A DNA stretch of 64,000 nt from Vicinamibacterales bacterium (GCA_050246635.1 JBFWVR010000002.1:373938-437937); one strand, 5' to 3'. Positions 20,847 to 46,384 are shown, counted from the first letter of the stretch. Notes: generated from the sequence alone by a model not told the origin. Numbers and translations are program-made.

Positions 20847-22095
20847 TCTGAATCTCCGTCGGCGTCAGGAGCTTCCAGTCCAGGCGCGGGGCGAGCAGGG
20901 CCCCCTTGAGGAGCTTGCGCCGCCCCTCCACCTGTTCGGCGGTCGAGTAGCTCATGAACGACAGCGCCTTGTAGATGATGAGCGAGGACTCCTTGCCCTC
21001 GTGCTCGACGATGAGGAAGGCGTTCACGCTGTAGACGATCTCGGTGAGGAAGTGCGCCGGGATGCGGACCCAGGCCTCGTAGCCCCCGGCCTCGTCGATC
21101 GCGTGGGCCTCGGGCTCCATGCTGCGGAAGATCAGCGTCGACCGGTAGTTGACGTCGACCCCGGCCTTGATCGTGATGTTCGGCTTCCGCACGACGAAGC
21201 GGATGCGCACGAAGACGTCCTCCGATTGCGGCGCCGCGCCAATCTCCTTGCCGGCGGCGGTGACGAGGCGCGCGCCGATGAGCTCCGCGTAGCGGTTCTC
21301 ATGCCGGCCCTTCTCGCCGGCCGTGGCCTCGTTCCGCGCCCACGCCGCGTTCTGGTACTCCAGCACCACGTCGTCCGGCTCGCCGATCTTCACGACCTGC
21401 CCGGCGTTGATCCACATCACCTGGTCGCAGACGCGCGAGATGGCCTCCATGTCGTGCGAGACGAACAGGACCGTCAGGCCGTCGTGCGCGAGCTCCGCGA
21501 CGCGCTCGAGACAGCGCTCCTGGAACGCGAGATCACCCACGGCCAGGATCTCGTCCGCGAGCAGGATGTCGGGCTGCATGTTGATCGCGACCGAGAAGGC
21601 CAGCCGCAGGTACATGCCGCTCGAGAAGAACCGCAGCTCCGTCTCGACGAACTCCCCGATCTCCGCGAACTCGACGATCTTGTCGAAGTTCCGGTCGACG
21701 TCGGCCTTCGGGATCCCGTACAGCGCGGCGTTCAGGTAGACGTTCTCGCGCGCCGACGCGTCGGGGTTGAAGCCCGCGCCGAGCTCCAGCAGCGAGACCA
21801 CGCGGCCGACGCCGTGCACGCGTCCCTCGCTGGGCGGCGTCACGCGGGCGATGACCTTGAGCAGCGTGCTCTTGCCGGCCCCGTTGGCCCCGATGATGCC
21901 CAGCACGCGTCCCGGCTCCGCCCCGAAGGAGACGTTGCGCAGCGCCCAGAACTCCCGCCCCCCCGGCCCCGCCTCGCCCTTCAGGAAGCTGGTGACCGAT
22001 CGCCACGACAGCTTCGGCAGCAACGCGTTCGCGTTCTTGTCCGACTTGCTGATGTGGTAGCACTTGCCGAGATTCTCGACGGTCAGGTTGTTCAT
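20839..22095 (-). CDS. wzt: ABC exporter ATP-binding protein with C-terminal Wzt-type glycan-binding domain
   Basis: 418-aa ORF. Walker A GANGAGKST, signature FSSGMYLRLAF, Walker B ILLADEILAVGD, H-loop VSHD. An extra ~160-aa C-terminal beta-rich domain follows (…VFVRIRFVVRKPNITIKAGVDVNY…WVRIPAHFLTEIVYSVNAFLIV…). Confidence 0.9.
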   Translation of the reverse strand: MNNLTVENLGKCYHISKSDKNANALLPKLSWRSVTSFLKGEAGPGGREFWALRNVSFGAEPGRVLGIIGANGAGKSTLLKVIARVTPPSEGRVHGVGRVVSLLELGAGFNPDASARENVYLNAALYGIPKADVDRNFDKIVEFAEIGEFVETELRFFSSGMYLRLAFSVAINMQPDILLADEILAVGDLAFQERCLERVAELAHDGLTVLFVSHDMEAISRVCDQVMWINAGQVVKIGEPDDVVLEYQNAAWARNEATAGEKGRHENRYAELIGARLVTAAGKEIGAAPQSEDVFVRIRFVVRKPNITIKAGVDVNYRSTLIFRSMEPEAHAIDEAGGYEAWVRIPAHFLTEIVYSVNAFLIVEHEGKESSLIIYKALSFMSYSTAEQVEGRRKLLKGALLAPRLDWKLLTPTEIQNA

Positions 22096-22108: not shown

Positions 22109-25100
22109 TCACTTCACCCCGCGGCCGCGCACGAACGTGCCGACGTGGTACCGCGCCTGCCGGGGAATGCGGGTGATCTGCCTGGCGAGCCGGCGCAGGC
22201 GCTCGCCGCCCGTGCGGCCCGCGTGCCCGGCGCCCTTGCGCAGGTGATGGAGCGATTGCCGCGCCGACTTGCGCGCCGCCGCGAGCCGCGCGTCCCCGGC
22301 CATGCGCCCCCGCACCGCGACCCCCCCTGCCAGCAGGAGCACCACCGGCAGGAGCGCGAGGCCCGCGGCACGCGCCGCAAGGGAACGCGCCCGCCCACGG
22401 CCACGCAGGCTGATGAGGCGGGTGGCCAGCGCATCGACGTCGCCGCCCGGCACCGGCGGCCAGAGTGCCTCGCCGGCATACCCGGTGAGCCGCGCGACCT
22501 CGCCGGCCGGGTCGGCCAGGGCCTCGCGGAGTTCGTCCAAGAGCGCGCTCGCGGACGCGCCGTGGCGCAGCCCGCCGCCGTTGGCACGGAGCAGCCACGT
22601 GAGCGGCTTCGCCACCGGGGCGGCAGGACTCGCGGGCGGCAACGCGAGAATCGCGGGCCGGCCGGCGGCCACCGCGCCGAGCAGCGCCGTGACGTGTCCG
22701 CCGACGACGGCCCTCGCGCCAGCCACCGATGCGTAGAGGAGCGCGTCGTCGCCCCGGCCGTCGGCCGGGTAGCTGGTGGGCCACAGCACCACGCCGTCGC
22801 GGTCCGCGATACCCGAGGCGTCCCACTCGGCGGTGCGCCCGGGCGCCGGCCGGATCACCACCGCCAGATCCCGCAGCCGGCTGTCGCCGCTCGTGCGCAG
22901 CGCGTCAACGAAGCTGTCGGCCAGCCGGACCTCCTGTCGAGTCGCGGCAAACGTGCCAGGTGACGCCACGTACAGGACGTAGTCACGTTCCGCATCGAGC
23001 CCGCACTGGGTTCGCAGGTCCGCGACGGCCTCCGGGGACACCCCGCGGAACGATTCCAGCGCGGTGGCGCCACTGACAACAACGGCGGCCTCGTCGACCA
23101 GTCCCGCCGCCGCGAGCGCGTGCCGATCGGCGGGGCTCCAGACCGACACCAGCGTGGGTCGGCCAAGCAGGAGGCCGTGATTGACGCCGTGCTCCCCACC
23201 GGATGCCAGGGCCGCTGCCGGCACGCCAAGCTGTCGGGCAGCCTTGAGGAGATCGATCTGGCCGGCGCTCGCCTCGGCCGCCGTCACCAGGTCCATCGCG
23301 GGCAGGACGAGCAACACGTCCGGCCGCTCGGTGTCCATCAACCCGCGGGCGCCAGCCGGGACGGGGACCGCGTGCTCGAGCAGGCCGAGCCGCCGCACGA
23401 GCCGCAACGCGCCATCGACGCCGGCAGCAGCGGTGTCCTGCAAGCCCACCGGCAGCAGGTGCCGGCGCACGCGGGTGTTCCAGTCGCCGTCCGCCACCGG
23501 CTCCTCCACGGCCGGCACGACCGGCACCAGCGTGGCAAGCCCTCCGAGCGCGGCACCGACCTCACCCCAGACACCGGTCGCGGCCGGGACGGCGCCGCGG
23601 ATCCGCGTGCCGTCCGCGGCGATCTCGAGTTGCTCGGACGGCCGACCGCGCCGCTCGCGCCCCGGCGTGTAGGTCACCGCGAGCCCGCACCCGTGTTCCC
23701 GGAGCGCGGCCAGCAGCGGCGCGTGGTGTGCGAGCGCCGCGGCTGACGGCGTGGCGACGAGCACGCGTGGAGACGCAGCCGCCCCCATCGTACTTGCGGG
23801 CCGCCTCCCCGTTGGCCACACCGCAGAGAGGATGGCCAGCGCCGCCCGTGCCACCCGATCTTCCCTCGGCGCGGGTCGCGCCGCGGGGTATCGGGCGACT
23901 TCCTGAATCAGCCGCTTGGCGGCGGCCAGCTCCGGTGCGGGCACCGGGCCGTGCGGACGGACGTACGCCCTCGCGGACCGAAGCGCCAAGGTCGACACGT
24001 CACCGCGGAACACGGCGGCCAGGTGCCGCATCGACTCGCCAATGGTGGTGGCCATGAGCGGCCAGCCGCGTCCCCGGCCGTGCAGGGCCTCGAACCGGGT
24101 GAGCTCCTCCCCCGTGTCGCTGCCGGGCAGGGCCAGGGCAATCACCGGCACCCGCACGGCCGCGCCGTCCAGCGCCGCGGCCAACCCGGTCGTGACGATG
24201 GCGTCCGCATGCTGGCAGGCTGCGGCCCACCGGGCGTCGCCGTGCCGGGCGCCTCGGGCATCCATCACGGCAACCGGCCCGAGCGCGGGCGGCAAGGCCA
24301 TCGACGCCGCGTCCGGGATCAGCACGGCGGCGCCGGCAACGTGCGCGTCTTCGTGCGTGCGGAGAACCCGCAGCCACTCCGCGACCCACGCCGTATTGGC
24401 GGCCACTGCGTCCTCCACCGACAGGACGATGAGCCTGGAATCGACGGGCAACCCCAGCGCGGCGAGCACCTCCGCGCGCGGGGGCGGATCCGCGAAGAGG
24501 TGGTTGAAGTCGGGCGCGCCGAGCACACTCACGCGTTGCGGAGGCATGCCGTGCAGGTCGATGGCTTCCCGCCGCTGTTCGCGGTTCCACACGCTGATCG
24601 CGTCGGGCCGTTCGTGCAGGTGCGCGCCGCAGGCGAGGTCGTCCCACCGGGCGGTGAGCGCCAGCGTGCTGGCACCGCGACGGTGGGCGGCGCGCGCATA
24701 ATCGACCTGCGCGCTTCCGTGCTCGAAGGGCGAGGCAAGCACCACGACGTCGGGCCGGTGCCGGTCGAGCAGCTCTGTCACGGCCGGGTCGACGGGCAAC
24801 GCGCGTTCCAGGCGGGTCAAGGTGCGGAGAGCCAGGTCGCGCGCCAGTGACAGTCCCCGGGCATCGACCGCCCGATCACGGAGTCGCAGCTGGTCGATCG
24901 CGGACCGCACCGCCGCGGCGGCCCGGGTCCTGCGTGGCGAGGCCGGCGGTGGCGCGTACCCGAGCGAGATGCGAGACGTGGTCCGCGCGAGGGCGCCAAT
25001 CGCGGTGAGCTCCTCATTGGCCGCGACCCGCTCGGCGACGACGTGCACGCGGTCGCCGCGGGCCGCGAGGCCGCGCAGCAGCCCCAGGTGCGGCGCCGCC

Positions 25101-25141
25101 GCCCCCAGGCTCGACACCACGAATACGACGCGCTCCGGCAT
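22109..25141 (-). CDS. motif-degenerate tandem double-domain member of the paralog family (D1) with predicted C-terminal membrane anchor
   Basis: 1010-aa ORF. Homology to the family is visible (RPDVVVLASPFEHGSAQVDYARAAHRRG…ARWDDLACGAHLHERPDAISVWNREQRREAIDLHGMPPQRVSVLGAPDF) but SWDNLT-KG, RPHP and QEGT-HF are not conserved. C-terminal hydrophobic stretch AAGLALLPVVLLLAGGVAV is followed by a basic tail. Confidence 0.7.
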   Translation of the reverse strand: MPERVVFVVSSLGAAAPHLGLLRGLAARGDRVHVVAERVAANEELTAIGALARTTSRISLGYAPPPASPRRTRAAAAVRSAIDQLRLRDRAVDARGLSLARDLALRTLTRLERALPVDPAVTELLDRHRPDVVVLASPFEHGSAQVDYARAAHRRGASTLALTARWDDLACGAHLHERPDAISVWNREQRREAIDLHGMPPQRVSVLGAPDFNHLFADPPPRAEVLAALGLPVDSRLIVLSVEDAVAANTAWVAEWLRVLRTHEDAHVAGAAVLIPDAASMALPPALGPVAVMDARGARHGDARWAAACQHADAIVTTGLAAALDGAAVRVPVIALALPGSDTGEELTRFEALHGRGRGWPLMATTIGESMRHLAAVFRGDVSTLALRSARAYVRPHGPVPAPELAAAKRLIQEVARYPAARPAPREDRVARAALAILSAVWPTGRRPASTMGAAASPRVLVATPSAAALAHHAPLLAALREHGCGLAVTYTPGRERRGRPSEQLEIAADGTRIRGAVPAATGVWGEVGAALGGLATLVPVVPAVEEPVADGDWNTRVRRHLLPVGLQDTAAAGVDGALRLVRRLGLLEHAVPVPAGARGLMDTERPDVLLVLPAMDLVTAAEASAGQIDLLKAARQLGVPAAALASGGEHGVNHGLLLGRPTLVSVWSPADRHALAAAGLVDEAAVVVSGATALESFRGVSPEAVADLRTQCGLDAERDYVLYVASPGTFAATRQEVRLADSFVDALRTSGDSRLRDLAVVIRPAPGRTAEWDASGIADRDGVVLWPTSYPADGRGDDALLYASVAGARAVVGGHVTALLGAVAAGRPAILALPPASPAAPVAKPLTWLLRANGGGLRHGASASALLDELREALADPAGEVARLTGYAGEALWPPVPGGDVDALATRLISLRGRGRARSLAARAAGLALLPVVLLLAGGVAVRGRMAGDARLAAARKSARQSLHHLRKGAGHAGRTGGERLRRLARQITRIPRQARYHVGTFVRGRGVK

Positions 25142-25168: not shown

Positions 25169-25645
25169 TCAGGCCAGCGGCTCGTTCGGTGACGCCTGTG
25201 GCCCGTGCTTGATGGCCCGCTTGCGTGCCTTGGCCTCGGCGCGCTCGGCCTCGGCCCGGGCACGCGCCGCGGCGTCGGCCGCCTCGATGCGCGAGCGGAA
25301 ACGGCGGATGACGCGGCCGGCGCACGCCACGCCGGCGCGCGACTCGAGGGGACGCGCCCGGCCGATCACCTGCATCCGCGCCAGGCCTTCGGCCACCGCC
25401 GCGACCTGCTCCGCCGTGAGCGCGGGTGTCGCGAGCGCCGGCACCTCGATCACCCGCACCGACGGCAGACCGGTGGCCGCCAGCGCTGACACCCGCTCGG
25501 TGGCCCCGGGCACCAGCACCCAGTCGGCTCCGCGCGTCGGCGTCGCGGTTACGCGGAGCACGCCGGCCGCGAGGCCGGCCGCGGCGGCCGCGGCCTCGAG
25601 CTGGCCGGCCACCGCCGGCGCTGCGCCGATGACGAGGATGCGCAC
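25169..25645 (-). CDS. small hypothetical protein (short Rossmann-like N-terminus plus A/R/E-rich tail), partner of D1
   Basis: Part of ORF 25169..25693. GTG start at 25645 (VRILVIGAAPAVAGQ…), 4 nt after the upstream stop. Third codon positions are very G+C-rich in this frame. Tail: EAADAAARARAEAERAEAKARKRAIKHG. Confidence 0.55.
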   Translation of the reverse strand: MRILVIGAAPAVAGQLEAAAAAAGLAAGVLRVTATPTRGADWVLVPGATERVSALAATGLPSVRVIEVPALATPALTAEQVAAVAEGLARMQVIGRARPLESRAGVACAGRVIRRFRSRIEAADAAARARAEAERAEAKARKRAIKHGPQASPNEPLA

Positions 25646-25649: not shown

Positions 25650-26831
25650 TCAGACCGCCTGCACGGCGGCGTCGAAGAACGCCGCCTCGACACCCATCGC
25701 GGCGCATGTGCGCCGGATCTCGTCCAGGTAGTTGGTGTTCATCACCAGCACCGCGAGCCGCCCCTCGGCGGTCCGCAGTGCGTCGGGCGCGTCGATCCGG
25801 CGCCCCGAAAGCGGGACGAAGCACCCCTGCTTGTTCGTGTTGACGTCCACGGCCAGGTCGAGCAGCCCACCGGCGTCGCGATCGACCAGCAGCGAGAAGA
25901 TCACGCCCTTGGTGGCCATGCCCCAGACGACCGTCCGCATCCCGGACGCCTTGAGGGCCTCGAGCCGGGCCCGCGTCTCGGCGATCCGCTGGCGTTCGCC
26001 GGCCGCGTAGGCCTGAAGGGCGCTGACGAACGCCGCGGCCGCCTCGTCGGGCGCAGGCGTCGCGGGCTCGGCAGCGACCGCCTCCATCCACCGGTACTGG
26101 TTGCCGAAGGCCACGCGCGTTGCCGTCGGCGCGAAACCGGCGCGGGCCAGGACCGAGCCGAGGCTGGCCGGGCTGAAGTAGTTGCAGTGCTCGTAGCAGA
26201 AGTCCCAGAACGTCTGCTCGTGGACGATCCACCCCGCATCGGGCACCTCGACGAAGAGGGGCACGCCGGCGCGGTCGCCGAGCGCGTCGCGGAGGTCGCG
26301 GACGAAGGGCACCGGCTGCGGGATGTGCTCCAGCACGTGACGGCAGACGAAGAGGGACGGCACGTCCTCGAGCAGGTCGTCGTGGAAGACGCCCTTCACC
26401 AGCCGGACGCGGCCATCGGCCTCGGTCGAGTCACCCGGCAGCGCCGGGTCGACCCCGAGGCCCCGGCACTCGGGCCAGACCCGCGCCGCGGCCTTGAGGA
26501 ACGTGCCGTTGCCGCAGCCGATGTCCACGAGGTAGCCGCGCGCCAGGTCGTACTTCTCGCCGAGATAGCGGGCAATCTCCTCGTAGTACGCCGCCATCAC
26601 CGCCGAGGGCACCGCGTTGTCGTACCCGGCGTCGTAGTCGAGGCGCGCGGGATCGAACGTGCCGTTCCACGCGAAGCTGCAGTGGGGACAGACCGACAGG
26701 GTGAGCACCCCCCGCTTCGCGCCGAGCGCCGCCTCACGCGTCCGGTACACGTAGTTCTGCATCGTCGGGAGCGGATCCCGGGTGACCGTGACCACCGCAT
26801 CGGTGGCGCCGCAGACCGGACAGGCCGTCAT
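25650..26831 (-). CDS. NDP-hexose C-methyltransferase family protein (TylCIII-like, divergent paralog)
   Basis: C-terminal 393 aa of ORF 25650..27752. ATG 26831 is in an ATGA overlap (tcat 26828-26831). Contains an N-terminal Cys4 (CPVCG…CPHCS), LVDIGCGNGTFL, FVCRHVLEHIPQP and a C-terminal Rossmann-like module (VVWGMATKGVIFSLL…NTNKQGCFVP). Confidence 0.75.
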   Translation of the reverse strand: MTACPVCGATDAVVTVTRDPLPTMQNYVYRTREAALGAKRGVLTLSVCPHCSFAWNGTFDPARLDYDAGYDNAVPSAVMAAYYEEIARYLGEKYDLARGYLVDIGCGNGTFLKAAARVWPECRGLGVDPALPGDSTEADGRVRLVKGVFHDDLLEDVPSLFVCRHVLEHIPQPVPFVRDLRDALGDRAGVPLFVEVPDAGWIVHEQTFWDFCYEHCNYFSPASLGSVLARAGFAPTATRVAFGNQYRWMEAVAAEPATPAPDEAAAAFVSALQAYAAGERQRIAETRARLEALKASGMRTVVWGMATKGVIFSLLVDRDAGGLLDLAVDVNTNKQGCFVPLSGRRIDAPDALRTAEGRLAVLVMNTNYLDEIRRTCAAMGVEAAFFDAAVQAV

Positions 26832-27820
26832 GCCCTCCCCCATCGCTCGAACCATGCCTGGTACCAGGTGACCGTCTCGCGCAGGCCGGCCTCGAAGGAC
26901 GTCCGTGGCGTCCAGTCCAGGAGCGTGCGCGCCTTGTCGGCGGCGAGCCACTGCTCGCGGATCTCGGCGCGCGCCGTGCCCCGGATGTCGGGCACGAGGT
27001 CGGCGCGTCCCATCACGTCCTGGATCGCCGCGATGACCTCGAGCACCGTGCGCCGCGCGTCGCCACTGAAGTTGACGGCATGGCCGGCGCGGCCGCCGGC
27101 GGCGGCCTCGGCGAGCGCGAGGTAGGCGGAGGCCGCGTCCTTCACGAAGAGGTAATCGCGGACGAACGTGCCGTCGCTGCGCACGATCGGCCGTTCGCCG
27201 CGGGCGAGCGAGCGAATGGTGCCCGGCACGATGCGGCTCCAGTTGAGGTCGCCGCCGCCGTAGATGTTGCCGCAGCGCGCGACGTTCACCGGCAAGCCGT
27301 ATGTCTCGTGGTAACTCTGCGCGAGCAGGTCCGTGCACGCCTTCGAGACGTCGTACGGGTGCCGCGCGCGCAGCGGCGTGTCCTCGGTGTACGGCAGGAC
27401 GTCGGCCGCACCGTAGGCCTTGTCGCTCGACGCGACGGCCACCGCCGTCACCACCTCGCGATGGGCCCGGCAGGCCTCGAGCACGTGGTAGGTGCCGCGG
27501 ATGTTCGCCTCGAAGGTCGTGAGCGGCGATCGCACGGCGGGGCCGACGAGCGCCTGCGCGCCCAGGTGGATCACCGTGTCCACCTCCCACATCCCGATCG
27601 CGCGCTCCACCGCACCGTAGTCCTCGAGCGCGCCGTAGACGATCTTGATCCGGGACACGTCGCCGCCCGAGACGAGCTCCGACTGGGGATCCAGGTCCAC
27701 GACCAGCGCGACGACCGTCGCGCCGCGCTCGAGCAGCTGCTTCACCACCCACGAGCCGACCACGCCACTCGCGCCCGTCACGAGCACGCGGCGCGCGCGC
27801 CAGAAACCGTCGGCCGCCAT
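26828..27820 (-). CDS. rfbG: CDP-glucose 4,6-dehydratase
   Basis: Part of ORF 26828..27895. Start at ATG 27820 (MAADGFWRARRVLVTGASGVVGSW…). SDR signature present: TGASG, SSDKAYG…YDVSKAC. FWRxxRVLVTG is the typical RfbG/DdhB opening. Sits next to the cytidylyltransferase pathway genes. Confidence 0.85.
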   Translation of the reverse strand: MAADGFWRARRVLVTGASGVVGSWVVKQLLERGATVVALVVDLDPQSELVSGGDVSRIKIVYGALEDYGAVERAIGMWEVDTVIHLGAQALVGPAVRSPLTTFEANIRGTYHVLEACRAHREVVTAVAVASSDKAYGAADVLPYTEDTPLRARHPYDVSKACTDLLAQSYHETYGLPVNVARCGNIYGGGDLNWSRIVPGTIRSLARGERPIVRSDGTFVRDYLFVKDAASAYLALAEAAAGGRAGHAVNFSGDARRTVLEVIAAIQDVMGRADLVPDIRGTARAEIREQWLAADKARTLLDWTPRTSFEAGLRETVTWYQAWFERWGRA

Positions 27821-28587
27821 CACTTCACCCGCCGCAGCCAGGCCTGCGGCCAGTGCGTCACGTTCTCGCGGAGCTCGCTCTCGTTGAAGGGCCACGCGGG
27901 CTGCTCGAGCACGAACTCCGGGCGCGTGGCCAGGAAGTCGTGCACTGCCGAGATCGGGTTGTCCTCACGCCATTCCGGCGTGCCGCGCGGCGCGTCGGCC
28001 ACCTCCTGCATCACGCCGTCGGTCGCGACGATGTAGGAGCCCGGCGTCACCATGTCCCAGTACGCCTCGAGCTCCGCCCGCACGTGCGCCCGGGAGTGGT
28101 TCGAGTCGAGCAGCACGAGCACGGTCTCCCCGGGCGCGACGAGTCCCTTCACCCGGGACACGAGCGCCGGATCGACCGAGCTGCCCTCCACCAGCGTGAT
28201 GTACTCGAAGAGCGGGTGCGCCTCGAGGGCCTGGCGGTTGTGGGGCCGGATCTCGATGTCGATGCCGACGACGCGGCCGCGGCCCATCGCCTTGCAGAGG
28301 CTGGCGTAGTAGATCAGCGACCCGCCGTGCGCGACGCCGGTCTCGACGATCACGTCGGGGGCCACCGCGTGGATGACCTCCTGCAGCCGGACCATGTCGT
28401 CCGGCAGCTGGATGACGGGACGGCCCATCCAGCTGAACGTGTAGGTGTACTTCTGGTTCCAGCCCACCTTCAGCCAGAGCCGGGAGAGGATCTCGAAGCC
28501 CTCGCGCGAGTAGAGCGGGATCTCGGTCGTGCCGTCGCCGCCCGGCACCGCGATCGTCTGTGCCGCCGTGTCGATTGTGTAGGTCAT
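27820..28587 (-). CDS. CmcI ('cephalosporin hydroxylase') family methyltransferase, rhamnosyl-O-methyltransferase-like
   Basis: Part of ORF 27820..28620. ATG 28587 is in an ATGA overlap (tcat 28584-28587). Contains WMGRPVIQLPDDMVRLQEVIHAVAPDVIVETGVAHGGSLIYYA…VLVLLDSNHSRAHV, characteristic of the CmcI family. Confidence 0.8.
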   Translation of the reverse strand: MTYTIDTAAQTIAVPGGDGTTEIPLYSREGFEILSRLWLKVGWNQKYTYTFSWMGRPVIQLPDDMVRLQEVIHAVAPDVIVETGVAHGGSLIYYASLCKAMGRGRVVGIDIEIRPHNRQALEAHPLFEYITLVEGSSVDPALVSRVKGLVAPGETVLVLLDSNHSRAHVRAELEAYWDMVTPGSYIVATDGVMQEVADAPRGTPEWREDNPISAVHDFLATRPEFVLEQPAWPFNESELRENVTHWPQAWLRRVK

Positions 28588-29504
28588 GCCCCTGCCGTTC
28601 CCAGTCGTCGTTCCCACCACGCCGCGGTGTCCTGCAGCCCCGCGCGCAGGCCGAACCGCGGCGTGAAGCCCACGTCCCCGTGGAGGCGCGCGACGTCGCC
28701 GACCACCAACGGGTATCGATCCTCGCCGGCGTCCGGCACCGGCTCGAGCCGCAGCGGGCGGCCGAGCGCCTCGGCGACGTGCGCCGCCAGCGTGGCCAGG
28801 CTCACCGCCTCGCCGGACGCGATGTTCACCGGGCCGTCGACGGGCGCGTCGACGAGCGCCGCGAACGCCCCCGCCACGTCGTCGACGTGCAGGTAGTCAC
28901 GCACCTGCGCCGGGTGGCGCAGGCGCATCGGCGCCCCCGTCGCGACCGCCCGCACGATGGCCGGGACGAGCCGCTCCGGCGCCTCCTCGGGCCCGTGCAG
29001 GAAGAACACGCGGCCCCAGGCGAACCCGACCCCCTCCTGCGCCGCCAGCCGCCCGACGATGCCGGCGAGCCCGTGTTTGCTCGCCGCGTACAGCGTGGCG
29101 GGCTCGAGGGGCGTGACCGCCTCCGAACAGTAGCCGTAGCGCCAGTCGTACTCGGCACAGGTCCCCGCGCCGACCACCCGCCGCCCCCCTTCGCGCACGA
29201 AGCGGTCGACGAGCGCCAGGCTGGACTGCACCCAGGGCAGGTTCTCGCGGGACGTGACGTAGGCCCCTGGCGTGACGTCCCACGCGAGATGCAGCAGCAC
29301 CTCGGGGCGCACGCGCTCGACGAGCGCGGCCGCCGCGCGGTGGTCGTGCAGGTCGACGGCGTGGACGTGGAGGTGTGGCGACGCCACCGGTAACGGCCGG
29401 CGCGTGACGGCGTGCACCTCATGGCCACGCGCGATCAGCGGCTCCAGCGTGCGGCGGCCGATGAACCCGCCGGCGCCCGTCACGAGGACCCGCGACGGCG
29501 TCAC
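28584..29504 (-). CDS. NAD(P)-dependent epimerase/dehydratase-family SDR, probable NDP-4-keto-sugar reductase
   Basis: C-terminal 306 aa of ORF 28584..30173. GTG 29504 is in a GTGA overlap (tcac 29501-29504). Contains VLVTGAGGFIGRR and YAASKHG (YxxxK). Confidence 0.8.
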   Translation of the reverse strand: MTPSRVLVTGAGGFIGRRTLEPLIARGHEVHAVTRRPLPVASPHLHVHAVDLHDHRAAAALVERVRPEVLLHLAWDVTPGAYVTSRENLPWVQSSLALVDRFVREGGRRVVGAGTCAEYDWRYGYCSEAVTPLEPATLYAASKHGLAGIVGRLAAQEGVGFAWGRVFFLHGPEEAPERLVPAIVRAVATGAPMRLRHPAQVRDYLHVDDVAGAFAALVDAPVDGPVNIASGEAVSLATLAAHVAEALGRPLRLEPVPDAGEDRYPLVVGDVARLHGDVGFTPRFGLRAGLQDTAAWWERRLGTAGA

Positions 29505-30031
29505 GGGCGGAGCGGGCCCCAGCCGCGGTCCTGATCCGAGAGGCCGGTGGGTGCGAGCGGCCACGCGATGGCCAGCGTGGGATCGTCCCAGCGGATGCCG
29601 TCGCCGGCCTCGCGGGCATAGTACGCGCCGATGTGATAGAGCACGGTCGTCTCGTCGGCAAGCGTCTGGAACCCGTGCGCCACTCCTTCCGGCATGAAGA
29701 CCAGGCGGCGGTTGGCGGCGGTCAGCTCGAAGCCTTCCCAGCGGCCGAAGGTCGGCGACCCGGGACGGATGTCGGCGACGACGTCGAAGAAGGCGCCGCT
29801 GACGCAGGTGACCAGCTTGGCATCGGCATGCGGGGCACGCTGGAAGTGGAGGCCGCGCAGGGTGCCGCGGCGCGCGTTGTGCGACAGGGCCGTGCGCACG
29901 AACCCGCCGGTCCAGCCGGCGGCGGCGAGCGCACGCGCCTGGAACAGCTCCGCGAACCAGCCCCGATCGTCGGCGGCCACCGGCGGATCGACGAGGAACA
30001 CGCCGGCCAGGCGCGTCTCGTGCAGCGTCAC
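29501..30031 (-). CDS. NDP-4-keto-6-deoxyhexose 3,5-epimerase (RmlC/RfbC cupin family)
   Basis: C-terminal 176 aa of ORF 29501..31099. GTG 30031 is in a GTGA overlap (tcac 30028-30031). Contains DDRGWFAELF…RGLHFQ…KLVTCVSGAFFDVVADIR…, the RmlC signature. Confidence 0.85.
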   Translation of the reverse strand: MTLHETRLAGVFLVDPPVAADDRGWFAELFQARALAAAGWTGGFVRTALSHNARRGTLRGLHFQRAPHADAKLVTCVSGAFFDVVADIRPGSPTFGRWEGFELTAANRRLVFMPEGVAHGFQTLADETTVLYHIGAYYAREAGDGIRWDDPTLAIAWPLAPTGLSDQDRGWGPLRP

Positions 30032-31260
30032 AGCACGCGGACCTTCGGGATCGCCACGAGGAACCGCCCGCCGGCCTCGCGATACGCGGCCTCCTGCCGG
30101 AGCACCTCGTCGGCGAGGTTCCAGACGAAGAGCAGCACGTAATCCGGCCGCCGCTCCGCGATGGCCGAAGCATCGACGATGGGGATGCCGCATCCCGGCA
30201 TCCGACGGCCCTGCTTGTGCGGGTTGCGATCGGCGACGAAGTCGACGAGCTGGTCGTCCACGCCGCAGTAGTTCAGGAGGATCGTGGCCTTGGCCGCCGC
30301 GCCGTACCCGGCAATGGTCGCGCCCCCCGCCTTCAACTCGGCCAGCGTGCGCGTCAGGTCCGCCCGCACGCCTTCGACCGCGCGGCGGAACGGCTCGTAG
30401 TAGGCGGCCTCCTGCATGCCGAGCGCACGCTCCTCGTCCAGCAGGGCCTGCGCGGAGGCGCCATGGGCCGTGCCGAACCCGATCGTCAGCCGCAGCGAGC
30501 CGCCGTGGATGGGCACCCGGACGACGTCCTCCAGGACGAGGCCGTGCCGCTCCACGAGCGCCGCCACCGCCGTCACGGAGAAGTACGACAGGTGCTCGTG
30601 GTAGATCGTGTCGAACTCGACCTTCTCCACCATGTCGCGCACGTAGGGCGCCTCGATGACGATCACGCCGCCCGGCTCGAGCATCGCCCGGGCGCCCGCG
30701 ATGAACCCGTTCGGGTCCGGCACGTGCGCGAAGACGTTCAGCCCGAGGATCACGTCGGCTCGACGGCCCTCGCCGGCGAGTCGCGTCCCGAGCTCGCGGC
30801 CGAAGAACGCATTGAGGGTGGGGATGCCGCGTTCGCGTTCCGCGACCGCCGCGATGTTGCCGGCCGGCTCGATGCCGAGCACCGGCACGCCCTGCTGCTT
30901 GAAGTACTGGAGCAGGTAGCCGTCGTTGCTCGCGATCTCGACGACCAGGCTGTCGGCGCCCAGGCCGCGGCCCTGCACGAGGCTGGTGGCCAGTGCCTCG
31001 GCGTGGCGCAGCATCGACCCGGAGTACGACGAGAAGTACAGGTACTCCGAGAACATGTCCTCCGGCGGGACCACGTGGCGGAGCTGCACGAGCGAACACG
31101 CCGGGCAGAGCGCGACGTCGAGCGGGAACCGCGGCTCTTCGCGGGACGCGTCGGCCGCGGGGTACGCGTTGGCCAGCGGCAGCGTCCCGAGCGAGACGAT
31201 CCCGGTGAGCGGGCCCGCGTCGCAGGCGAGGCAGCGCTCGCGCGCCAGCGGCGCGCTCAC
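30028..31260 (-). CDS. NDP-hexose C-methyltransferase (TylCIII-like)
   Basis: Part of ORF 30028..31275. Preferred start is GTG 31260 (GTGA overlap, tcac 31257-31260); GTG 31275 is an alternative. Contains CLACD…CPACSLVQL zinc motif, VVEIASNDGYLLQYF, LNVFAHVPDP and a C-terminal module IAGYGAAAKATILLNY…DRNPHKQGRRMPG. Confidence 0.85.
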   Translation of the reverse strand: MSAPLARERCLACDAGPLTGIVSLGTLPLANAYPAADASREEPRFPLDVALCPACSLVQLRHVVPPEDMFSEYLYFSSYSGSMLRHAEALATSLVQGRGLGADSLVVEIASNDGYLLQYFKQQGVPVLGIEPAGNIAAVAERERGIPTLNAFFGRELGTRLAGEGRRADVILGLNVFAHVPDPNGFIAGARAMLEPGGVIVIEAPYVRDMVEKVEFDTIYHEHLSYFSVTAVAALVERHGLVLEDVVRVPIHGGSLRLTIGFGTAHGASAQALLDEERALGMQEAAYYEPFRRAVEGVRADLTRTLAELKAGGATIAGYGAAAKATILLNYCGVDDQLVDFVADRNPHKQGRRMPGCGIPIVDASAIAERRPDYVLLFVWNLADEVLRQEAAYREAGGRFLVAIPKVRVL

Positions 31261-32030
31261 GCCCACACCTTCCACGGCGCGTCGCCGCGTTGCCAGAGCT
31301 CCTCGAGCATCATGCGCTCACGCAGCGTGTCCATGCACTGCCAGAACCCCTCGTGGCAATAGACCGACAGCTGCCGGTCCCCGGCGAGCCGCTCGAGCAC
31401 GTCCTTCTCCAGGCTGTTGGTCGTGTCGTCCATGTAGTCGAAGACCTGCGGCTCGAACACCATGAAGCCGCCGTTGATCCACCCCTCGCCAATCTGCGGC
31501 TTCTCGACGAACTCGGTGACGATGTGGCCGTCGAAGGCCAGGCCGCCGAAGCGTGACGGCGGGCGCACGGCGGTGATGGTGCCAATCGTGCCGTTCCGCC
31601 GGTGGGCGGCGAGCAGCGCGTCGAGGTCCACGTTGGCGACGCCGTCGCCATAGGTCAGGAAGAACGGCCCATCACCCAGCCACGGGCGCAACCGGTGGAC
31701 ACGCCCGCCCGTCCCGGTCTCGAGTCCGGTCTCGACGAGGTGCACCCGCCAGTCCTCGATGCCGTCGCCGTCGTGCAGCTGGCTGTCCCCCGACGCGAAG
31801 TCGACGGTGAGCGACGCGCTCAGCAGCTTGTAGTTGAGGAAGAACTGCTTGATGACGTGGCCCTTGTAGCCGAGCGCCAGCACGAACTCGTCGTGCCCGG
31901 CACTCGAGAAGTGCTTCATGATGTGCCACATGATCGGCCGGTCGCCGATCTGCACCATCGGCTTCGGCAGCACTTCGGTCAGTTCGGCCAGGCGGCTGCC
32001 CCGGCCTCCCGCGAGGATGACGGTTTTCAC
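31257..32030 (-). CDS. rfbF: glucose-1-phosphate cytidylyltransferase
   Basis: Part of ORF 31257..32150. GTG 32030 is in a GTGA overlap (tcac 32027-32030). VKTVILAGGRGSRLAELTEVLPKPMVQIGDRPIMWHIMKHFS…GFWQCMDTLRE… matches RfbF/DdhA closely. Confidence 0.9.
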   Translation of the reverse strand: MKTVILAGGRGSRLAELTEVLPKPMVQIGDRPIMWHIMKHFSSAGHDEFVLALGYKGHVIKQFFLNYKLLSASLTVDFASGDSQLHDGDGIEDWRVHLVETGLETGTGGRVHRLRPWLGDGPFFLTYGDGVANVDLDALLAAHRRNGTIGTITAVRPPSRFGGLAFDGHIVTEFVEKPQIGEGWINGGFMVFEPQVFDYMDDTTNSLEKDVLERLAGDRQLSVYCHEGFWQCMDTLRERMMLEELWQRGDAPWKVWA

Positions 32031-33289
32031 GACAGGCTCTCCGTGACCGCGGCGCCCAGGCGGCGGGCGTTCCACGGCTTGAGTGACTCGAGGCTTGGCA
32101 TCTCGACCGGGCTCCCGCCCGACGGCACGCGCGGGTGGGACTCGGCCCACGCCAGCGCGTCGAACACGCTGTCGAACCCGCTGCCCGCCGCGGCCAGTGC
32201 CCCCGGCTCCGCCGCGCCGTCGGGCCCCGGCTCCGGATCCCCCGCGCCGCCGGGCAAAACCGTGGTCGCGTCCAGGTAGACCTGCCGCGTCCGCACGAAC
32301 GCCTGCACGTCGTCGTCCTCGAGCGCGAGGCCGGCAAGCAGCAGGTCGTAGTCATCGCTGAGCTCCGCCCCGCCCCGCGCCGCGCGGACGTAGTCCGTCA
32401 GGCAGCCGGCGTAGTACTGGCGCCGGTCCGGCTCATACGGCGCGAAGACCTCCGGGAGGGCCTGCTTCAAGCGCAGGAAGTCGTTGAGCGTCAGGGCGTG
32501 GGTGAAACAGGCTTCGGTCGGCGCCAGGCCGACGACGTCGCGCCAGGTCATCCCCAGATCCGCGAGGAACCGCTGCGCCAGCTCCCCGCGGTGCCGGAAG
32601 GCCGAGCCGTTGCCGCGCCCGCAGCTCACGAAGAGCCCGTCGTCCAGCAACACCATGCGGGGTGTATGGGCCAGCATCAGGAACCCCGACGTGAAGTCGG
32701 GCGCCACCGGCAGGCACACGCGACCCAGGGCCGACGCGCGGATGGCGTCGAGCACCGAGTGGTGGCACACCGCGCTCATCAGCTTGGGCACCATCTTCGT
32801 CGCCGACTTCGGGTGGCCGCTCAGGAAGTAGTGCAGGACCTCGGCGGTGTCGAGCGTGTACTCCCGGAGCGTGGACTTGCGCCGCCGGAACTCGCGGCCC
32901 GCGGCGTCGCCGCCGAAGCGGTCGGGAAACCAGCACACGAGGTGCGAGCCGGTGCGCGCGGCCACGTCGTGGGCCGTCTGGAGCGCGTCGCGGCGCAGCA
33001 CGGACCGGTCGGTCAGGATGCCCACGAACTCGCCGCGCGTGTCACGGACGGCGTGCTCCCAGTTGTCGGGCATCGACAACCGCCCGTTCGTCCGGACGTA
33101 GCGCACCCGCGGGTCGTCGAAGGCCGCGGCCGCGGCTGCGGTCTCGGCCACGGCCGCCTCGTCGCTGTTGTCGCAGACGATTACTTCCAGGTCGCCGAAG
33201 GTCTGCTCCAGCACGCTGCGGATCGCGTTCCGCATCCGGTCCGGCCGGTTCTTGCAGGGAATGGCAATGCTGAAGAACGGGCGGCTCAC
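32027..33289 (-). CDS. GT2-family glycosyltransferase with long C-terminal extension (paralog of 42482..43729)
   Basis: Part of ORF 32027..33427. GTG 33289 is in a GTGA overlap (tcac 33286-33289). Contains FFSIAIPCKNRPDRMRNAIRSVLEQTFGDLEVIVCDNSD. Confidence 0.8.
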   Translation of the reverse strand: MSRPFFSIAIPCKNRPDRMRNAIRSVLEQTFGDLEVIVCDNSDEAAVAETAAAAAAFDDPRVRYVRTNGRLSMPDNWEHAVRDTRGEFVGILTDRSVLRRDALQTAHDVAARTGSHLVCWFPDRFGGDAAGREFRRRKSTLREYTLDTAEVLHYFLSGHPKSATKMVPKLMSAVCHHSVLDAIRASALGRVCLPVAPDFTSGFLMLAHTPRMVLLDDGLFVSCGRGNGSAFRHRGELAQRFLADLGMTWRDVVGLAPTEACFTHALTLNDFLRLKQALPEVFAPYEPDRRQYYAGCLTDYVRAARGGAELSDDYDLLLAGLALEDDDVQAFVRTRQVYLDATTVLPGGAGDPEPGPDGAAEPGALAAAGSGFDSVFDALAWAESHPRVPSGGSPVEMPSLESLKPWNARRLGAAVTESLS

Positions 33290-34758
33290 CGCGCGACCCC
33301 TTCCCCATCGAGCGTCAGGCCCGGCACGAGCGCCGTCACGGCGGGCGTCGCGGCGCCGGCGTGTGGCAGCGCGGCCCGTTCGATCACGTCGGCGACGATC
33401 CCGGCCGCCGGTGTCGTGTCGCCGCACGGGCGGATGAACCAGCGCACGAAGTCACGCCGGCCCTCGCGACGCTCGTCTGCACCGTCGAGGATGCGCGCCA
33501 CCCGGCGGGCGACCTCCCCCGCATCGGCCGACACCTCGAGGAACCCGCCCTGCAGCAGGTGCCGGAAGTGCCCGGTCCGTCCCTGCGCTCCGTGGAACTC
33601 ATCGGCCACGATCGTCAGGCATGGCCGGTCCGCCACGACCGCCTCGAGGAACGCCGTCGTGTTGAGGCCGAAGACGGCGGCCGACTGGGCGAGCTGGTCG
33701 AAGTACTCCTGCCAGGCGGCCGGGGTGTCGGCCTGGTCGCCCTGCCGTGGGTGCACGACGACCCCGGGTCGCGTGTACTCGGCGAAGGGGAACGGATTGG
33801 TCGGGTGTGGCCGCACGACGAGGGTCGGCGCCGCCCCGGCGGGGAACTGCCGCTCGAGGGCGTCGACGAGCCGGTTCACCAGGGGCACCTCGTCGGCGAA
33901 GATCGTGCGCGAGCTGCAGAGGAACACGAGGAACGGGCGGTCGTCGGGACAGCCCATGCGCGCGCACAGCTCCGCGCGCGAGGCGACCGGCCGCATCCCG
34001 AAGAAGTGATCGAGATGGGGGGCGCCGGTGATGCGAATCGTCCCGGGTGGCACGTCGTGCAGGTCGACGGCCTCGCGGGCCAGCGCCTCGTTCCACACGA
34101 TGTAGGTCTCCGGCAGGACGTGGATCGTGCCCTTGCTGGTCAGGTTGTCCCAGCTGTTCAAGTAGCCGATGGTCGGCAGGCCGAGCGCCCGCGCCGCGCG
34201 GATATAGTCCGCCTCGACCGGGGACTTCGGCCAGATTGTCGGCGAGGCCACGACGACGTCGGGGGCCACCTCGCGGAGTAACGCCGTCACCGAGGGGCTG
34301 GGGGCGCTGGCCGCCTCGATCCAGCGCCACGCCCGCAGGCCGGCGGGCCGGCGCAGGACGGCCTTCCAGGCGGGGGCGTGGACACGCGCCCGCCAGGCCT
34401 CCGGCAGCTCCTTTTCGATGCCATCGACGGTGCGCTCCGGAGCCGGATGGTCCGCGCGGAAGTAGGTGGCCCGGTTCATCACGAGGCGGCCGGTCAGCAG
34501 CGCGCGCTGCCACGGCTCGTCCGGCTCGGGGCGGTAGCCGGTGGTGACGCCGGGGATCTCGGACTGGGCGACCTGGAGGCCCCGCGTCATCATCGCGATC
34601 TTCTGGGCCTTGCGCTCGTTCAGGTCCTTGAGCCGGGGGTCGTCGAGACGGGTGCCATGAAGGAAGACGACGTCATGGCCCCGCGCGGCCAGCTCGCGCA
34701 TGACCGTGTCGAGATTGCGGAAGAAGTTGACGTGCTGGACGATGAAGAGCGTCTTCAT
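33286..34758 (-). CDS. paralog family copy P7 (subfamily 2, single domain)
   Basis: Part of ORF 33286..34794. Start placed at ATG 34758 (MKTLFIVQHVNFFRNLDTV…) by homology with P8/P9; ATG 34794 is an alternative. Motifs: NSWDNLTSKG, VWNEALAREAVDLHDVP, LVVRPHPTN, VFGLNTTAFLEAVVADRPC, GAQGRTGHFRHLL. Confidence 0.85.
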   Translation of the reverse strand: MKTLFIVQHVNFFRNLDTVMRELAARGHDVVFLHGTRLDDPRLKDLNERKAQKIAMMTRGLQVAQSEIPGVTTGYRPEPDEPWQRALLTGRLVMNRATYFRADHPAPERTVDGIEKELPEAWRARVHAPAWKAVLRRPAGLRAWRWIEAASAPSPSVTALLREVAPDVVVASPTIWPKSPVEADYIRAARALGLPTIGYLNSWDNLTSKGTIHVLPETYIVWNEALAREAVDLHDVPPGTIRITGAPHLDHFFGMRPVASRAELCARMGCPDDRPFLVFLCSSRTIFADEVPLVNRLVDALERQFPAGAAPTLVVRPHPTNPFPFAEYTRPGVVVHPRQGDQADTPAAWQEYFDQLAQSAAVFGLNTTAFLEAVVADRPCLTIVADEFHGAQGRTGHFRHLLQGGFLEVSADAGEVARRVARILDGADERREGRRDFVRWFIRPCGDTTPAAGIVADVIERAALPHAGAATPAVTALVPGLTLDGEGVAR

Positions 34759-34862
34759 CTGGTCGCGTACAGGCGTCCGCCCTCTCAGTCCCATCGGGGC
34801 TGCGGCGGGTCATGGCGGGCTGGGTGTGGCCAGGCGGCAGGCCGCCGCGGGGCGGCGACCCT

Positions 34863-34877
34863 GTTCAAAATTTGAAC
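34863..34877. promoter_or_regulatory. AT-rich perfect inverted repeat GTTCAAA-a-TTTGAAC (candidate operator)
   Basis: Read directly at 34863-34877 in the divergent intergenic region, which is the most AT-rich spot I noticed. It lies immediately downstream of the candidate minus-strand promoter. Confidence 0.4.
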
Positions 34878-34882
34878 GACGT

Positions 34883-34911
34883 ATTGTCGTCCGCTCCCCG
34901 CCAATTGTCAA
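34883..34911 (-). promoter_or_regulatory. candidate sigma70-like promoter for the 34758-to-1 operon (TTGACA-17 nt-GACAAT)
   Basis: The minus strand reads GCATTGACAATTGGCGGGGAGCGGACGACAATACGTCGTTCAAATTTTGAAC. -35 TTGACA maps to plus 34906-34911, the spacer is 17 nt, and -10 GACAAT maps to plus 34883-34888. Confidence 0.35.
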
Positions 34912-34954
34912 TGCGGGCAATTCCGGGCCGCCCCCCTTGAATCCCCCCGTCCGC

Positions 34955-45213: not shown

Positions 45214-45222
45214 GTGCAGGCG

Positions 45223-45231
45223 ATTCTAGCA
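45223..45231 (-). promoter_or_regulatory. candidate extended -10 promoter (TGC-TAGAAT) 9 nt upstream of ATG 45213
   Basis: The minus strand reads CCCCCTTGCTAGAATCGCCTGCACATG in the 67-nt gap. That spacing implies a very short or absent 5' leader. Confidence 0.35.
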
Positions 45232-46354: not shown

Positions 46355-46362
46355 GGCAACCT

Positions 46363-46384
46363 CGGAAACCGGGGACGGTTTCCG
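46363..46384. other. intergenic stem-loop (8-bp stem cggaaacc/ggtttccg, 6-nt loop)
   Basis: Read directly: cggaaacc-ggggac-ggtttccg, between stop 46391 and ATG 46354. There is no U-tract, so it is not a canonical terminator. Confidence 0.4.

Follow-up and report, generated by a model that had tools for sequence, protein, structure and literature searches.

Outside antibiotics, in which they are assembled on deoxythymidine diphosphate (dTDP), branched-chain methyl sugars are to our knowledge hardly known. The late steps of the dTDP-L-mycarose pathway rely on a C-methyltransferase (TylC3/EryBIII), an RmlC-type 5-epimerase (TylK/EryBVII) and a 4-ketoreductase (TylC2/EryBIV). The dTDP-L-noviose pathway uses an RmlC homolog (the 3-epimerase NovW), the 5-C-methyltransferase NovU, the 4-ketoreductase NovS and the O-methyltransferase NovP. 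Vinelose (1967) is the one branched methyl sugar linked to cytidine diphosphate (CDP) that we know of. CDP-vinelose, which is known chemically from Azotobacter vinelandii (6-deoxy-3-C-methyl-2-O-methyl-L-talose), is said to show, in the work of Okuda, Suzuki and Suzuki (1967-68), that C- and O-methylation are possible at the CDP-sugar level. The CDP-3,6-dideoxyhexose pathway (RfbF, RfbG, E1/E3, RfbS/RfbE) serves the O-antigens of Salmonella and Yersinia. Here we analyse a seven-gene cassette at positions 25650-32030 of a 64,000-nucleotide stretch of DNA from a Vicinamibacterales bacterium (GCA_050246635.1 JBFWVR010000002.1:373938-437937, called the window below). It shares the trio of C-methyltransferase, RmlC-type epimerase and reductase with the mycarose pathway, these types plus an O-methyltransferase with the noviose pathway, and the first two steps and a predicted use in surface polysaccharide with the dideoxyhexose pathway. 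Six of its seven genes predict the same chemistry as that of vinelose, namely a CDP-linked 6-deoxy-L-hexose that is branched at C-3 and methylated by S-adenosylmethionine (SAM). It seems probable that the cassette encodes a single nucleotide-sugar pathway, leading to a CDP-linked, C-branched 6-deoxy-hexose that receives three methyl groups from SAM and is used for a surface polysaccharide.

The G+C content is ~72% across the whole window. Seven co-directional open reading frames (ORFs) make up the cassette, listed here with their lengths in amino acids (aa) and the supporting models; NDP stands for nucleoside diphosphate and SDR for short-chain dehydrogenase/reductase:

31257..32030, minus strand: RfbF, glucose-1-phosphate cytidylyltransferase, 257 aa, GTG start (TIGR02623, PF00483)
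30028..31260, minus strand: C-MT1, NDP-hexose C-methyltransferase of the TylC3/TcaB9 type, 410 aa (PF08421 + PF13489 + PF08484)
29501..30031, minus strand: RmlC-type 4-keto-6-deoxyhexose epimerase, 176 aa (TIGR01221, PF00908)
28584..29504, minus strand: extended SDR, putative 4-ketoreductase, 306 aa (PF01370)
27820..28587, minus strand: CmcI/RMNT-family methyltransferase, putative O-methyltransferase, 255 aa (PF04989)
26828..27820, minus strand: NDP-glucose 4,6-dehydratase-like SDR, putative CDP-glucose 4,6-dehydratase, 330 aa (PF16363)
25650..26831, minus strand: C-MT2, deep-branching paralog of the NDP-sugar C-methyltransferases, 393 aa (PF13489 + weak PF08484)

Overlaps of 4 nucleotides (nt; GTGA/ATGA type) are found at the junctions of RfbF with an upstream glycosyltransferase family 2 (GT2) gene, RfbF/C-MT1, C-MT1/epimerase, epimerase/SDR, SDR/CmcI and dehydratase/C-MT2. 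The CmcI and dehydratase genes overlap by 1 nt, and a gap of 4 nt separates C-MT2 from the next small ORF (25169..25645). The seven genes are predicted to form one translationally coupled operon. A preliminary description of this DNA had reported the same seven contiguous, coupled genes; ORF coordinates, overlaps and family scans bore this out, and its family labels hold for all seven proteins.

Enzymes of the cassette

Activation of the sugar by CDP appears well supported, because RfbF exceeds the cut-off of its equivalog model and the dehydratase carries the Asp-Lys pair of RfbG rather than the Asp-Glu pair of RmlB. RfbF reached 330.1 bits with the TIGR02623 model (cut-off 300.25) over residues 1-256 of 257, and orthologs of 46-77% identity stand beside C-MT2 in 26 of the 33 well-flanked loci described below. 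The dehydratase matches PF16363 at 176 bits and has the motifs SSDKAY and YDVSK, that is, Tyr-x3-Lys plus the Asp-Lys pair. The corresponding motifs are TTDKVY and YSASK in the Desulfolutivibrio protein that the Prokaryotic Genome Annotation Pipeline (PGAP) names RfbG, and STDEVY in RmlB structures. The acid/base pair, reportedly assigned in the papers on 1WVG and 1RKX, is Asp-Lys in CDP-glucose 4,6-dehydratases and Asp-Glu in the dTDP enzymes. Across phyla, two dehydratase types fill the same slot in the cassette. The short type of the window (50-78% identity) is found in Acidobacteriota, Planctomycetota, Gaiellaceae and Anaerolineales loci, and a canonical RfbG (26-35% identity to the window dehydratase) in other loci, including L074, L075 and L076. 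The assignment to a CDP-hexose branch in the preliminary description is thus upheld by the RfbF score and the dehydratase motifs. A dTDP-linked or guanosine diphosphate (GDP)-linked pathway was rejected on the equivalog score and the co-occurrence of RfbF.

C-MT1 matches PF08421, PF13489 and PF08484 (182 bits) above all cut-offs, corresponding to a Zn ribbon, a class I methyltransferase domain and a C-terminal domain. Full-length matches were obtained to the solved C3-methyltransferases MtmC (2e-86), KijD1 (6e-85) and TcaB9 (8e-80); C-MT1 could be aligned end to end with PDB 4rv9, 5t64 and 3ndi, with 30-44% identity to the three solved enzymes. Five TcaB9 residues (Y76, H181, Y222, E224, H225) have reportedly been mutated in Holden's laboratory. 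We traced them with an offset of two between the PDB chain numbering and the literature numbering, and all five (Tyr76, His181, Tyr222, Glu224 and His225) are conserved in 48 of 48 C-MT1-clade sequences, including that of the window. The four Zn cysteines are present in the window protein and kept in 45-46 of the 48 sequences. In a neighbour-joining tree, the RfbF-linked C-MT1 sequences form a sister clade to the three solved dTDP enzymes. Judged by these comparisons, C-MT1 can be regarded as a genuine relative of NDP-hexose 3-C-methyltransferases, in agreement with the earlier labelling as a C-methyltransferase: it is close to MtmC, KijD1 and TcaB9 and its catalytic residues are complete. By analogy with these enzymes its target carbon is likely C-3, and the linkage to RfbF suggests CDP as the nucleotide of its substrate.

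C-MT2 shares only ~19% identity with C-MT1 and with the solved enzymes. It matches PF13489 at 68 bits and PF08484 at 27.8 bits (cut-off 23.5); PF08421 was undetected by Pfam, yet a CxxC...CxxC arrangement is present. The preliminary description had counted a lack of SAM-binding residues in this protein as evidence against its reading. SAM motif I is intact (VDIGCGNG), D103, G105 and G107 are invariant in 16 homologs, and we rejected an inability to bind SAM on the strength of this motif. Further motifs that are invariant in the family are RHVLEH, FWDFCYEHCNYF, WGMATKG and NKQG. The four Zn cysteines are kept, and equivalents of Tyr76, His181, Glu224 and His225 are found in 69-72 of 72 clade sequences. 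These four residues belong to ~22 positions that are conserved across the superfamily. An AlphaFold model of C-MT2 was obtained with a predicted local distance difference test score (pLDDT) of 91.4 and a predicted template modelling score (pTM) of 0.89. The top 18 Foldseek matches of this model were solely MtmC, KijD1 and TcaB9 entries, TcaB9 mutants among them, with template modelling (TM) scores of 0.75-0.83 and E values down to 4e-26. The next matches covered the methyltransferase domain only (E 2e-9), leaving a gap of more than 12 orders of magnitude. C-MT2 is predicted from this model to have the full three-domain fold of sugar C-methyltransferases. In the neighbour-joining tree, C-MT2 sequences form a separate deep clade, and an exhaustive profile-free protein search found 1417 clusters (50% identity) that match C-MT2 at E <= 1e-30. 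We describe C-MT2 as a same-fold relative, a putative rather than demonstrated C-methyltransferase. The second C-methyltransferase had been read earlier as a hint of an additional or alternative C-methylation; the SAM motif, the fold and the presence of four of the five probed TcaB9 residues are compatible with such a role.

We also observed a difference between the solved enzymes and both RfbF-linked clades at the position of TcaB9 Asp33 (Asn26 in the window C-MT2). All three solved dTDP-dependent enzymes carry Asp, and Asn is found in 44 of 48 C-MT1 and 68 of 72 C-MT2 sequences. The change is the only suggestive one found when residues for nucleotide specificity were sought, and is a candidate switch in nucleotide or substrate specificity.

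The remaining enzymes would complete the tailoring of the sugar. The epimerase scored 167.3 bits with the rmlC equivalog model TIGR01221 (cut-off 155.75) and 200 bits with PF00908; among PDB entries it matches RmlC (1e-44) and NovW (5e-33), and its substrate is presumably a CDP-sugar. The SDR at 28584-29504 (PF01370, 120 bits) is the sole candidate reductase of the cassette, and pathway logic suggests that it acts as the 4-ketoreductase. The CmcI-type protein matches PF04989 at 243.7 bits over profile positions 1-206 of 206, gives a weak match to the CmcI structure (6e-07), and scores 74 bits with NF045824, the equivalog model of the mycobacterial rhamnosyl O-methyltransferase (cut-off 400). 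By these scores it is classed as a member of the PF04989 family and not as the mycobacterial rhamnosyl O-methyltransferase. Its gene lies at most 400 bp from C-MT2 in 26 of the 51 loci that have both.

Recurrence of the cassette in other genomes

A partial exact copy of the locus was found only on one 6.5-kb contig from one public sequencing run. C-MT2 homologs with 49-65% identity are abundant in metagenomes, and the order GT-B-like gene, GT2, RfbF, C-MT1, epimerase, SDR, CmcI, dehydratase, C-MT2, small ORF and double GT-B gene is kept on metagenome contigs. Scanning species-representative genomes with a C-MT2 alignment gave 64 loci. The closest are from Vicinamibacterales and other Acidobacteriota metagenome-assembled genomes (MAGs; 63-64% identity), which makes an acidobacterial origin of the window probable. 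Further loci belong to Planctomycetota, Actinomycetota (Gaiellaceae and others), Chloroflexota, Cyanobacteriota, Myxococcota, Bacteroidota, Alpha-, Beta- and Gammaproteobacteria, Spirochaetota, Fibrobacterota and Patescibacteria. The presence of partners was assessed by tblastn of the window proteins against the fetched loci, and counted in those 33 loci where C-MT2 is flanked by 8 kb or more on each side. RfbF was found in 26 of these, C-MT1 in 28, the epimerase, SDR and CmcI in 26 each and a dehydratase in 22; all six partners were present in 18. Gene order and strand vary between phyla. The cassette is a recurrent module of shuffled order in at least 12 phyla, and its recurrence in dozens of unrelated genomes places the arrangement far beyond chance.

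Natural fusions argue that the enzymes of the cassette act on one substrate line. C-MT2 is fused to CmcI in P0160 and to an SDR in three clusters (P0373, P0389, P0405), and tandem fusions of a C-methyltransferase with C-MT2 were found in two (P0357, P0360). In the fusion P0487 (576 aa), a C-MT2-like protein is joined to a cytidylyltransferase-like domain (PF01467), a hint that the C-MT2 clade may work on substrates linked to a cytidine nucleotide.

The cassette is also present in cultured bacteria. The C-MT1 of a Pseudomonas MAG has relatives of ~70% identity in P. fluorescens, P. protegens, P. putida, P. chlororaphis and many others, and the seven-gene cassette is found in P. protegens CP060289 (L075, 7610-13908) and P. 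putida CP018846 (L076, 7610-13905). There the order is flgK, flgL, a 1190-aa GT2, RfbF, RfbG, epimerase, C-MT1, SDR, a C-MT2-like gene, CmcI, a 975-aa GT2 and nonulosonic-acid-type genes. The C-MT2-like protein is 32% identical to the window C-MT2 (7e-44). By its gene content this region can be identified as a flagellin glycosylation island, which implies that the flagellins of P. protegens and P. putida may carry an uncharacterised methyl-branched sugar. Neither this setting nor the spread over at least 12 phyla had been noticed in the preliminary description. Because the set co-occurs across phyla, is joined in fusions and stands as the same set beside flgK/flgL in Pseudomonas, we interpret it as one pathway and not as a chance neighbourhood.

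A full set is carried by plasmid p1 of Desulfolutivibrio sulfodismutans DSM 3696. Partial sets, consisting of RfbF, a dehydratase and C-MT1 plus CmcI and/or C-MT2-like paralogs, are found on pSymB of Sinorhizobium meliloti 1021, Leisingera plasmids, p6 of Azospirillum lipoferum 4B, and Cupriavidus and Rhizobium replicons. Two variants, on a Leisingera aquaemixtae plasmid (L073, 8469-13155) and on S. meliloti 1021 pSymB (L072), have RfbF, an SDR–C-MT1 fusion and two C-MT2-like paralogs. The fusion protein has 781 aa, and its SDR part carries SSCSNY and not the Asp-Lys/Glu motif of the dehydratases. Epimerase, separate reductase and CmcI were not found within 10 kb in these variants, whose product is possibly a different, more heavily C-methylated sugar. 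SMb21416-18 are listed in the literature as ddhA, ddhB and 'NDP-hexose 3-C-methyltransferase', with no functional description. A further variant (L003, 2994-11113, contig_1659 of ERZ25039524) has no dehydratase between CmcI and C-MT2, and a CTP_transf_3 cytidylyltransferase and a DXP-synthase/transketolase-like protein are encoded ahead of its cassette. This hints at a two-carbon branching chemistry in that lineage, which would resemble yersiniose.

Proposed pathway and alternatives

In the pathway that we propose, RfbF would convert glucose-1-phosphate and cytidine triphosphate to CDP-D-glucose, a well-supported step, and the SDR at 26828-27820 would form CDP-4-keto-6-deoxy-D-glucose, as supported by its motifs and its position in the cassette. 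C-MT1 may then add a methyl group from SAM beside the keto group by an enolate mechanism, likely at C-3 by homology to MtmC, KijD1 and TcaB9. The RmlC-type enzyme would epimerise the remaining enolisable centre, C-5, to give an L-sugar, the SDR at 28584-29504 would reduce C-4, and the CmcI-type enzyme would O-methylate. The same CDP-sugar may receive its third methyl group from C-MT2, at or near the 4-keto stage. The adjacent GT2 and GT-B-like proteins could transfer the sugar into a heavily methylated polysaccharide that the ABC-2 transporter would export; the Pseudomonas cassettes seem to be used for flagellin glycosylation instead. Since the cassette has three methyltransferases and vinelose needs two, the product should be vinelose-like or nogalose-like and not vinelose itself, as far as gene content can tell. 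The vinelose-type set of C-methylation, epimerisation, reduction and O-methylation that the preliminary description had expected is present in enzyme types, but exact vinelose appears improbable, there being one methyltransferase too many.

Several observations count against this proposal. The dehydratase scored 186 bits with the RfbG equivalog model TIGR02622, below the cut-off of 278.45, and nearly the same (181 bits) with TIGR01181, the model for dTDP-glucose 4,6-dehydratases. The earlier name RfbG can be retained for its CDP-type motifs, its cassette slot and its family, but not at the equivalog level. The nearest solved relatives of the putative 4-ketoreductase are epimerases and decarboxylases (MoeE5, 5e-22) and not 4-ketoreductases. 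The substrates of those CmcI-family enzymes that have been characterised are not nucleotides (cephalosporin; the rhamnosyl residue of a glycolipid), and the CmcI-type enzyme could therefore act after glycosyl transfer. The sequence of C-MT1 does not distinguish C-3 from C-5 regiochemistry, and the NovU-type 5-C-methyltransferases belong to the same canonical family. The C-MT2 clade has Cys in place of TcaB9 Tyr222 in 67 of 72 sequences, so that the set of five probed residues is incomplete, and methylation at both C-3 and C-5 would make the conserved epimerase superfluous, which speaks for C-MT2 as an O-methyltransferase.

The readings diverge on the role of C-MT2. A second C-methylation, which the largely retained catalytic set (four of five residues) and the complete fold favour, has in our view a little less than an even chance of being correct; O-methylation is a serious possibility without being probable, and any other outcome appears fairly unlikely. 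One specific form of the second C-methylation would place C-MT1 at C-3 and C-MT2 at C-5 of one CDP-4-keto-6-deoxyhexose, giving a doubly C-branched, O-methylated 6-deoxyhexose, a hybrid of mycarose and noviose on CDP. We put this forward tentatively and regard it as rather unlikely. We know of no report of such a sugar from any glycan; if it were true, bacteria of at least 12 phyla, P. putida and P. protegens among them, would carry it on their surfaces or flagella. Also on the unlikely side, though deserving attention, is that C-MT2 is an O-methyltransferase on a C-methyltransferase scaffold, acting for instance on the 4-OH made by the SDR, with a 3-C-methyl-di-O-methyl-6-deoxy-L-hexose between vinelose and nogalose as product. 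The RmlC-type epimerase, present in 26 of the 33 well-flanked loci, is needed only if C-3 or C-5 stays unmethylated. The clade-wide change of Tyr222 to Cys and the SDR–C-MT2 fusions, together with the C-MT2–CmcI fusion, fit an order of reduction followed by O-methylation, and cyanobacterial loci and S. meliloti Ak57 have a C-MT2–SDR–CmcI or SDR–C-MT2 sub-module without C-MT1. Yet simple O-methylation would not need all four of the probed residues that C-MT2 retains among the positions conserved across the superfamily, and the PDB matches with this fold are C3-methyltransferases only; we know of no O-methyltransferase with the fold of C-MT2.

Three other readings were weighed. If the product were exactly CDP-vinelose, C-MT2 would methylate another residue of the glycan or be a non-catalytic partner. 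Such a product would call for exactly six of the seven genes, a few long loci (L063, L064) have C-MT2 without other cassette genes, and in a Pseudomonas MAG (L059) rmlBACD and a hydrolase gene lie between C-MT2 and the contiguous RfbF, RfbG, epimerase, C-MT1 and SDR genes, with CmcI at the far end. The second epimerase and SDR beside C-MT2 in that MAG, which we had considered as an independent C-MT2 branch, belong to an ordinary rmlBACD operon. We think exact vinelose improbable, as C-MT2 accompanies the set across phyla, with all six partners in more than half of the well-flanked loci, is fused to CmcI, SDR or another C-methyltransferase, and keeps the NDP-sugar-binding three-domain fold and catalytic residues. 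No Azotobacter entry was among the top matches of two protein searches seeded with homologs from Pseudomonas MAGs, and none was seen in a plasmid search, Azotobacter chromosomes not having been queried directly. A branch point, at which C-MT1 and C-MT2 act alternatively on CDP-4-keto-6-deoxyglucose and share the epimerase and reductase to give two methyl-branched sugars, would agree with two paralogs of the same catalytic set, with the many nearby glycosyltransferase-like genes that could use several donors, and with Sinorhizobium and Leisingera clusters that have C-MT1 and two C-MT2-like genes. It is made very improbable by the fact that each cassette has just a single epimerase, reductase and CmcI, by tandem fusions of a C-methyltransferase with C-MT2 that suggest consecutive action, and by the organisation of the whole set as one predicted translationally coupled operon. 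The high G+C content and the antibiotic origin of the nearest solved C-MT1 relatives would suit the deoxysugar branch of an actinomycete-style antibiotic cluster on dTDP-sugars. Against this, the nucleotidyltransferase is an RfbF equivalog and not RmlA, the window genes that were scanned include no polyketide synthase or non-ribosomal peptide synthetase gene, the surroundings consist of glycosyltransferases and an ABC-2 exporter, and the block as a whole has its nearest relatives in Acidobacteriota MAGs. We ruled such a cluster out on this context and these relatives and give it next to no credence.

Surrounding glycan island and relation to described systems

The cassette sits in a very large glycan island, which includes an ABC-2 permease and ATPase of the ATP-binding cassette (ABC) type, GT2 genes, a GT61 gene, a TylF-type methyltransferase, Gmd and a DegT aminotransferase. 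The genes next to the cassette are:

33286..34794, minus strand: GT-B-fold protein without Pfam match, 502 aa, candidate glycosyltransferase (AlphaFold + Foldseek)
32027..33427, minus strand: GT2 glycosyltransferase, true start uncertain, stop overlapping the RfbF start (PF00535)
25169..25645, minus strand: small conserved protein, 158 aa, 4 nt past C-MT2 (no Pfam match)
22109..25141, minus strand: 1010-aa protein with two copies of the GT-B-like module (sub-threshold GT4 match)
20839..22095, minus strand: ABC ATPase with a C-terminal extension of ~170 aa (PF00005)
19953..20846, minus strand: ABC-2 permease (PF01061)

The GT2 gene is also found directly upstream of RfbF in Acidobacteriota relatives and near the cassette in Gaiellaceae loci. 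The AlphaFold model of the 33286-34794 protein (pLDDT 80, pTM 0.83) matched GT-B folds in Foldseek (CalG4, UDP-GlcNAc 2-epimerases; E 5e-11, TM 0.47-0.68, 11-18% identity), and its gene is conserved upstream of GT2-RfbF in relatives. The 22109-25141 protein, conserved downstream of C-MT2 in relatives, has two modules similar to this protein and its paralogs. This Pfam-less module of ~470 aa is present in ~16 copies in 12-13 genes between 939 and 51000 of the window, with 25-72% identity between copies; carriers include the minus-strand genes 33286-34794, 43726-45225, 5951-9199, 22109-25141 and 38664-41756. Several genes have two copies or a C-terminal FkbM methyltransferase, and the motifs SWDxLxxKG and HP are invariant. 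From its modelled fold, which is only distantly similar to GT1 enzymes and UDP-GlcNAc 2-epimerases, it looks like an unclassified glycosyltransferase-like family that is massively expanded here. Since Acidobacteriota relatives keep, along with the cassette, the two carriers that border it, these two proteins and the GT2 protein are candidate transferases of the CDP-sugar. The small ORF is found at the same position, with 37-39% identity, only in the Acidobacteriota-type loci L002, L005, L006, L007 and L009.

The ABC-2 permease and ATPase genes overlap by 8 nt and follow the double GT-B gene at a distance of 13 nt; in L009, L034 and L067 their homologs are found beside the cassette. Permease and ATPase thus stand beside glycosyltransferases and sugar genes, as in Wzm/Wzt-type export. 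Flagellin glycosylation was rejected for the window, as the scanned ORFs include this exporter and no flagellar genes. The ATPase has 418 aa, with ~170 residues past the nucleotide-binding domain that are without a Pfam match, and no Pfam match to the C-terminal carbohydrate-binding domain of Wzt was found in it. The extension could be a divergent Wzt-type domain for recognition of the glycan terminus, where a methylated rare sugar would be a typical cap. In this lineage the flanking glycosyltransferases and the ABC transporter belong to the functional unit, which had not been part of the preliminary description.

Other genes of the island were also recorded. At least five FkbM-type (PF05050) domains (2691-4937, 16832-19516, 34700-35707, 45281-46390, 58495-59361) and a TylF-type O-methyltransferase (37099-37929) are encoded, and the glycan would be expected to be unusually heavily methylated. 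A GDP-mannose 4,6-dehydratase (56635-57639, minus strand; PF16363, 427 bits) and a DegT/EryC1-type aminotransferase (60100-61461, minus strand) suggest a second, GDP-linked 6-deoxy/amino-sugar branch, perhaps perosamine-like. A fatty-acid desaturase family protein (55152-56270, minus strand) and a large protein (50769-53147, minus strand), whose Pfam match to the membrane protein YfhO is weak and below threshold, lie among the glycan genes.

Literature searches gave no functional description of the cassette, the pathway or its sugar, and nothing on vinelose genes, which the preliminary description had rightly called poorly defined. As far as we found, the combination is undescribed although very common. 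What is new here is the joining of a CDP carrier, a TylC3-type C-methyltransferase, its deep-branching paralog and a CmcI-type enzyme; the enzyme families and the tailoring logic are already known. The cassette is a concrete, testable candidate for CDP-linked branched methyl-sugar chemistry, and its carriers extend beyond an uncultured soil bacterium to genetically tractable Pseudomonas and to Sinorhizobium, Azospirillum and Desulfolutivibrio replicons. Its solution would identify a sugar that many bacteria carry on surfaces and flagella, show what the large uncharacterised C-MT2 clade of methyltransferases does and provide CDP-specific tailoring enzymes for glycoengineering.

Compared with the mycarose pathway, the cassette has CDP (RfbF) in place of dTDP, two further methyltransferases (CmcI type and C-MT2) and no genes for a 2,3-dehydratase or 3-ketoreductase, so that the 2-OH would be retained; its product is predicted to enter a surface glycan and not an antibiotic. 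The noviose pathway shows that the C-methyltransferase family of the cassette can also methylate C-5. It differs in its dTDP carrier, its single C-methyltransferase and its TylF/NovP-type O-methyltransferase, which acts after glycosyl transfer. Vinelose requires two methyltransferases where the cassette has three, and its L-talo configuration and 2-O position cannot be read from sequence. In Pseudomonas flagellin islands, large GT2 genes of the fgt1/fgt2 type stand next to the flagellin region, and in P. protegens and P. putida two large GT2 genes enclose the same seven genes, whereas the window has an ABC-2 exporter, GT-B-like and FkbM genes and no flagellar genes among those scanned, with protein identities of only 30-50%. 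Finally, relative to the CDP-3,6-dideoxyhexose pathway, the cassette is without E1/E3 (DdhC/DdhD) and has a dehydratase of a distinct short type, and the 4-keto intermediate would be methylated instead.

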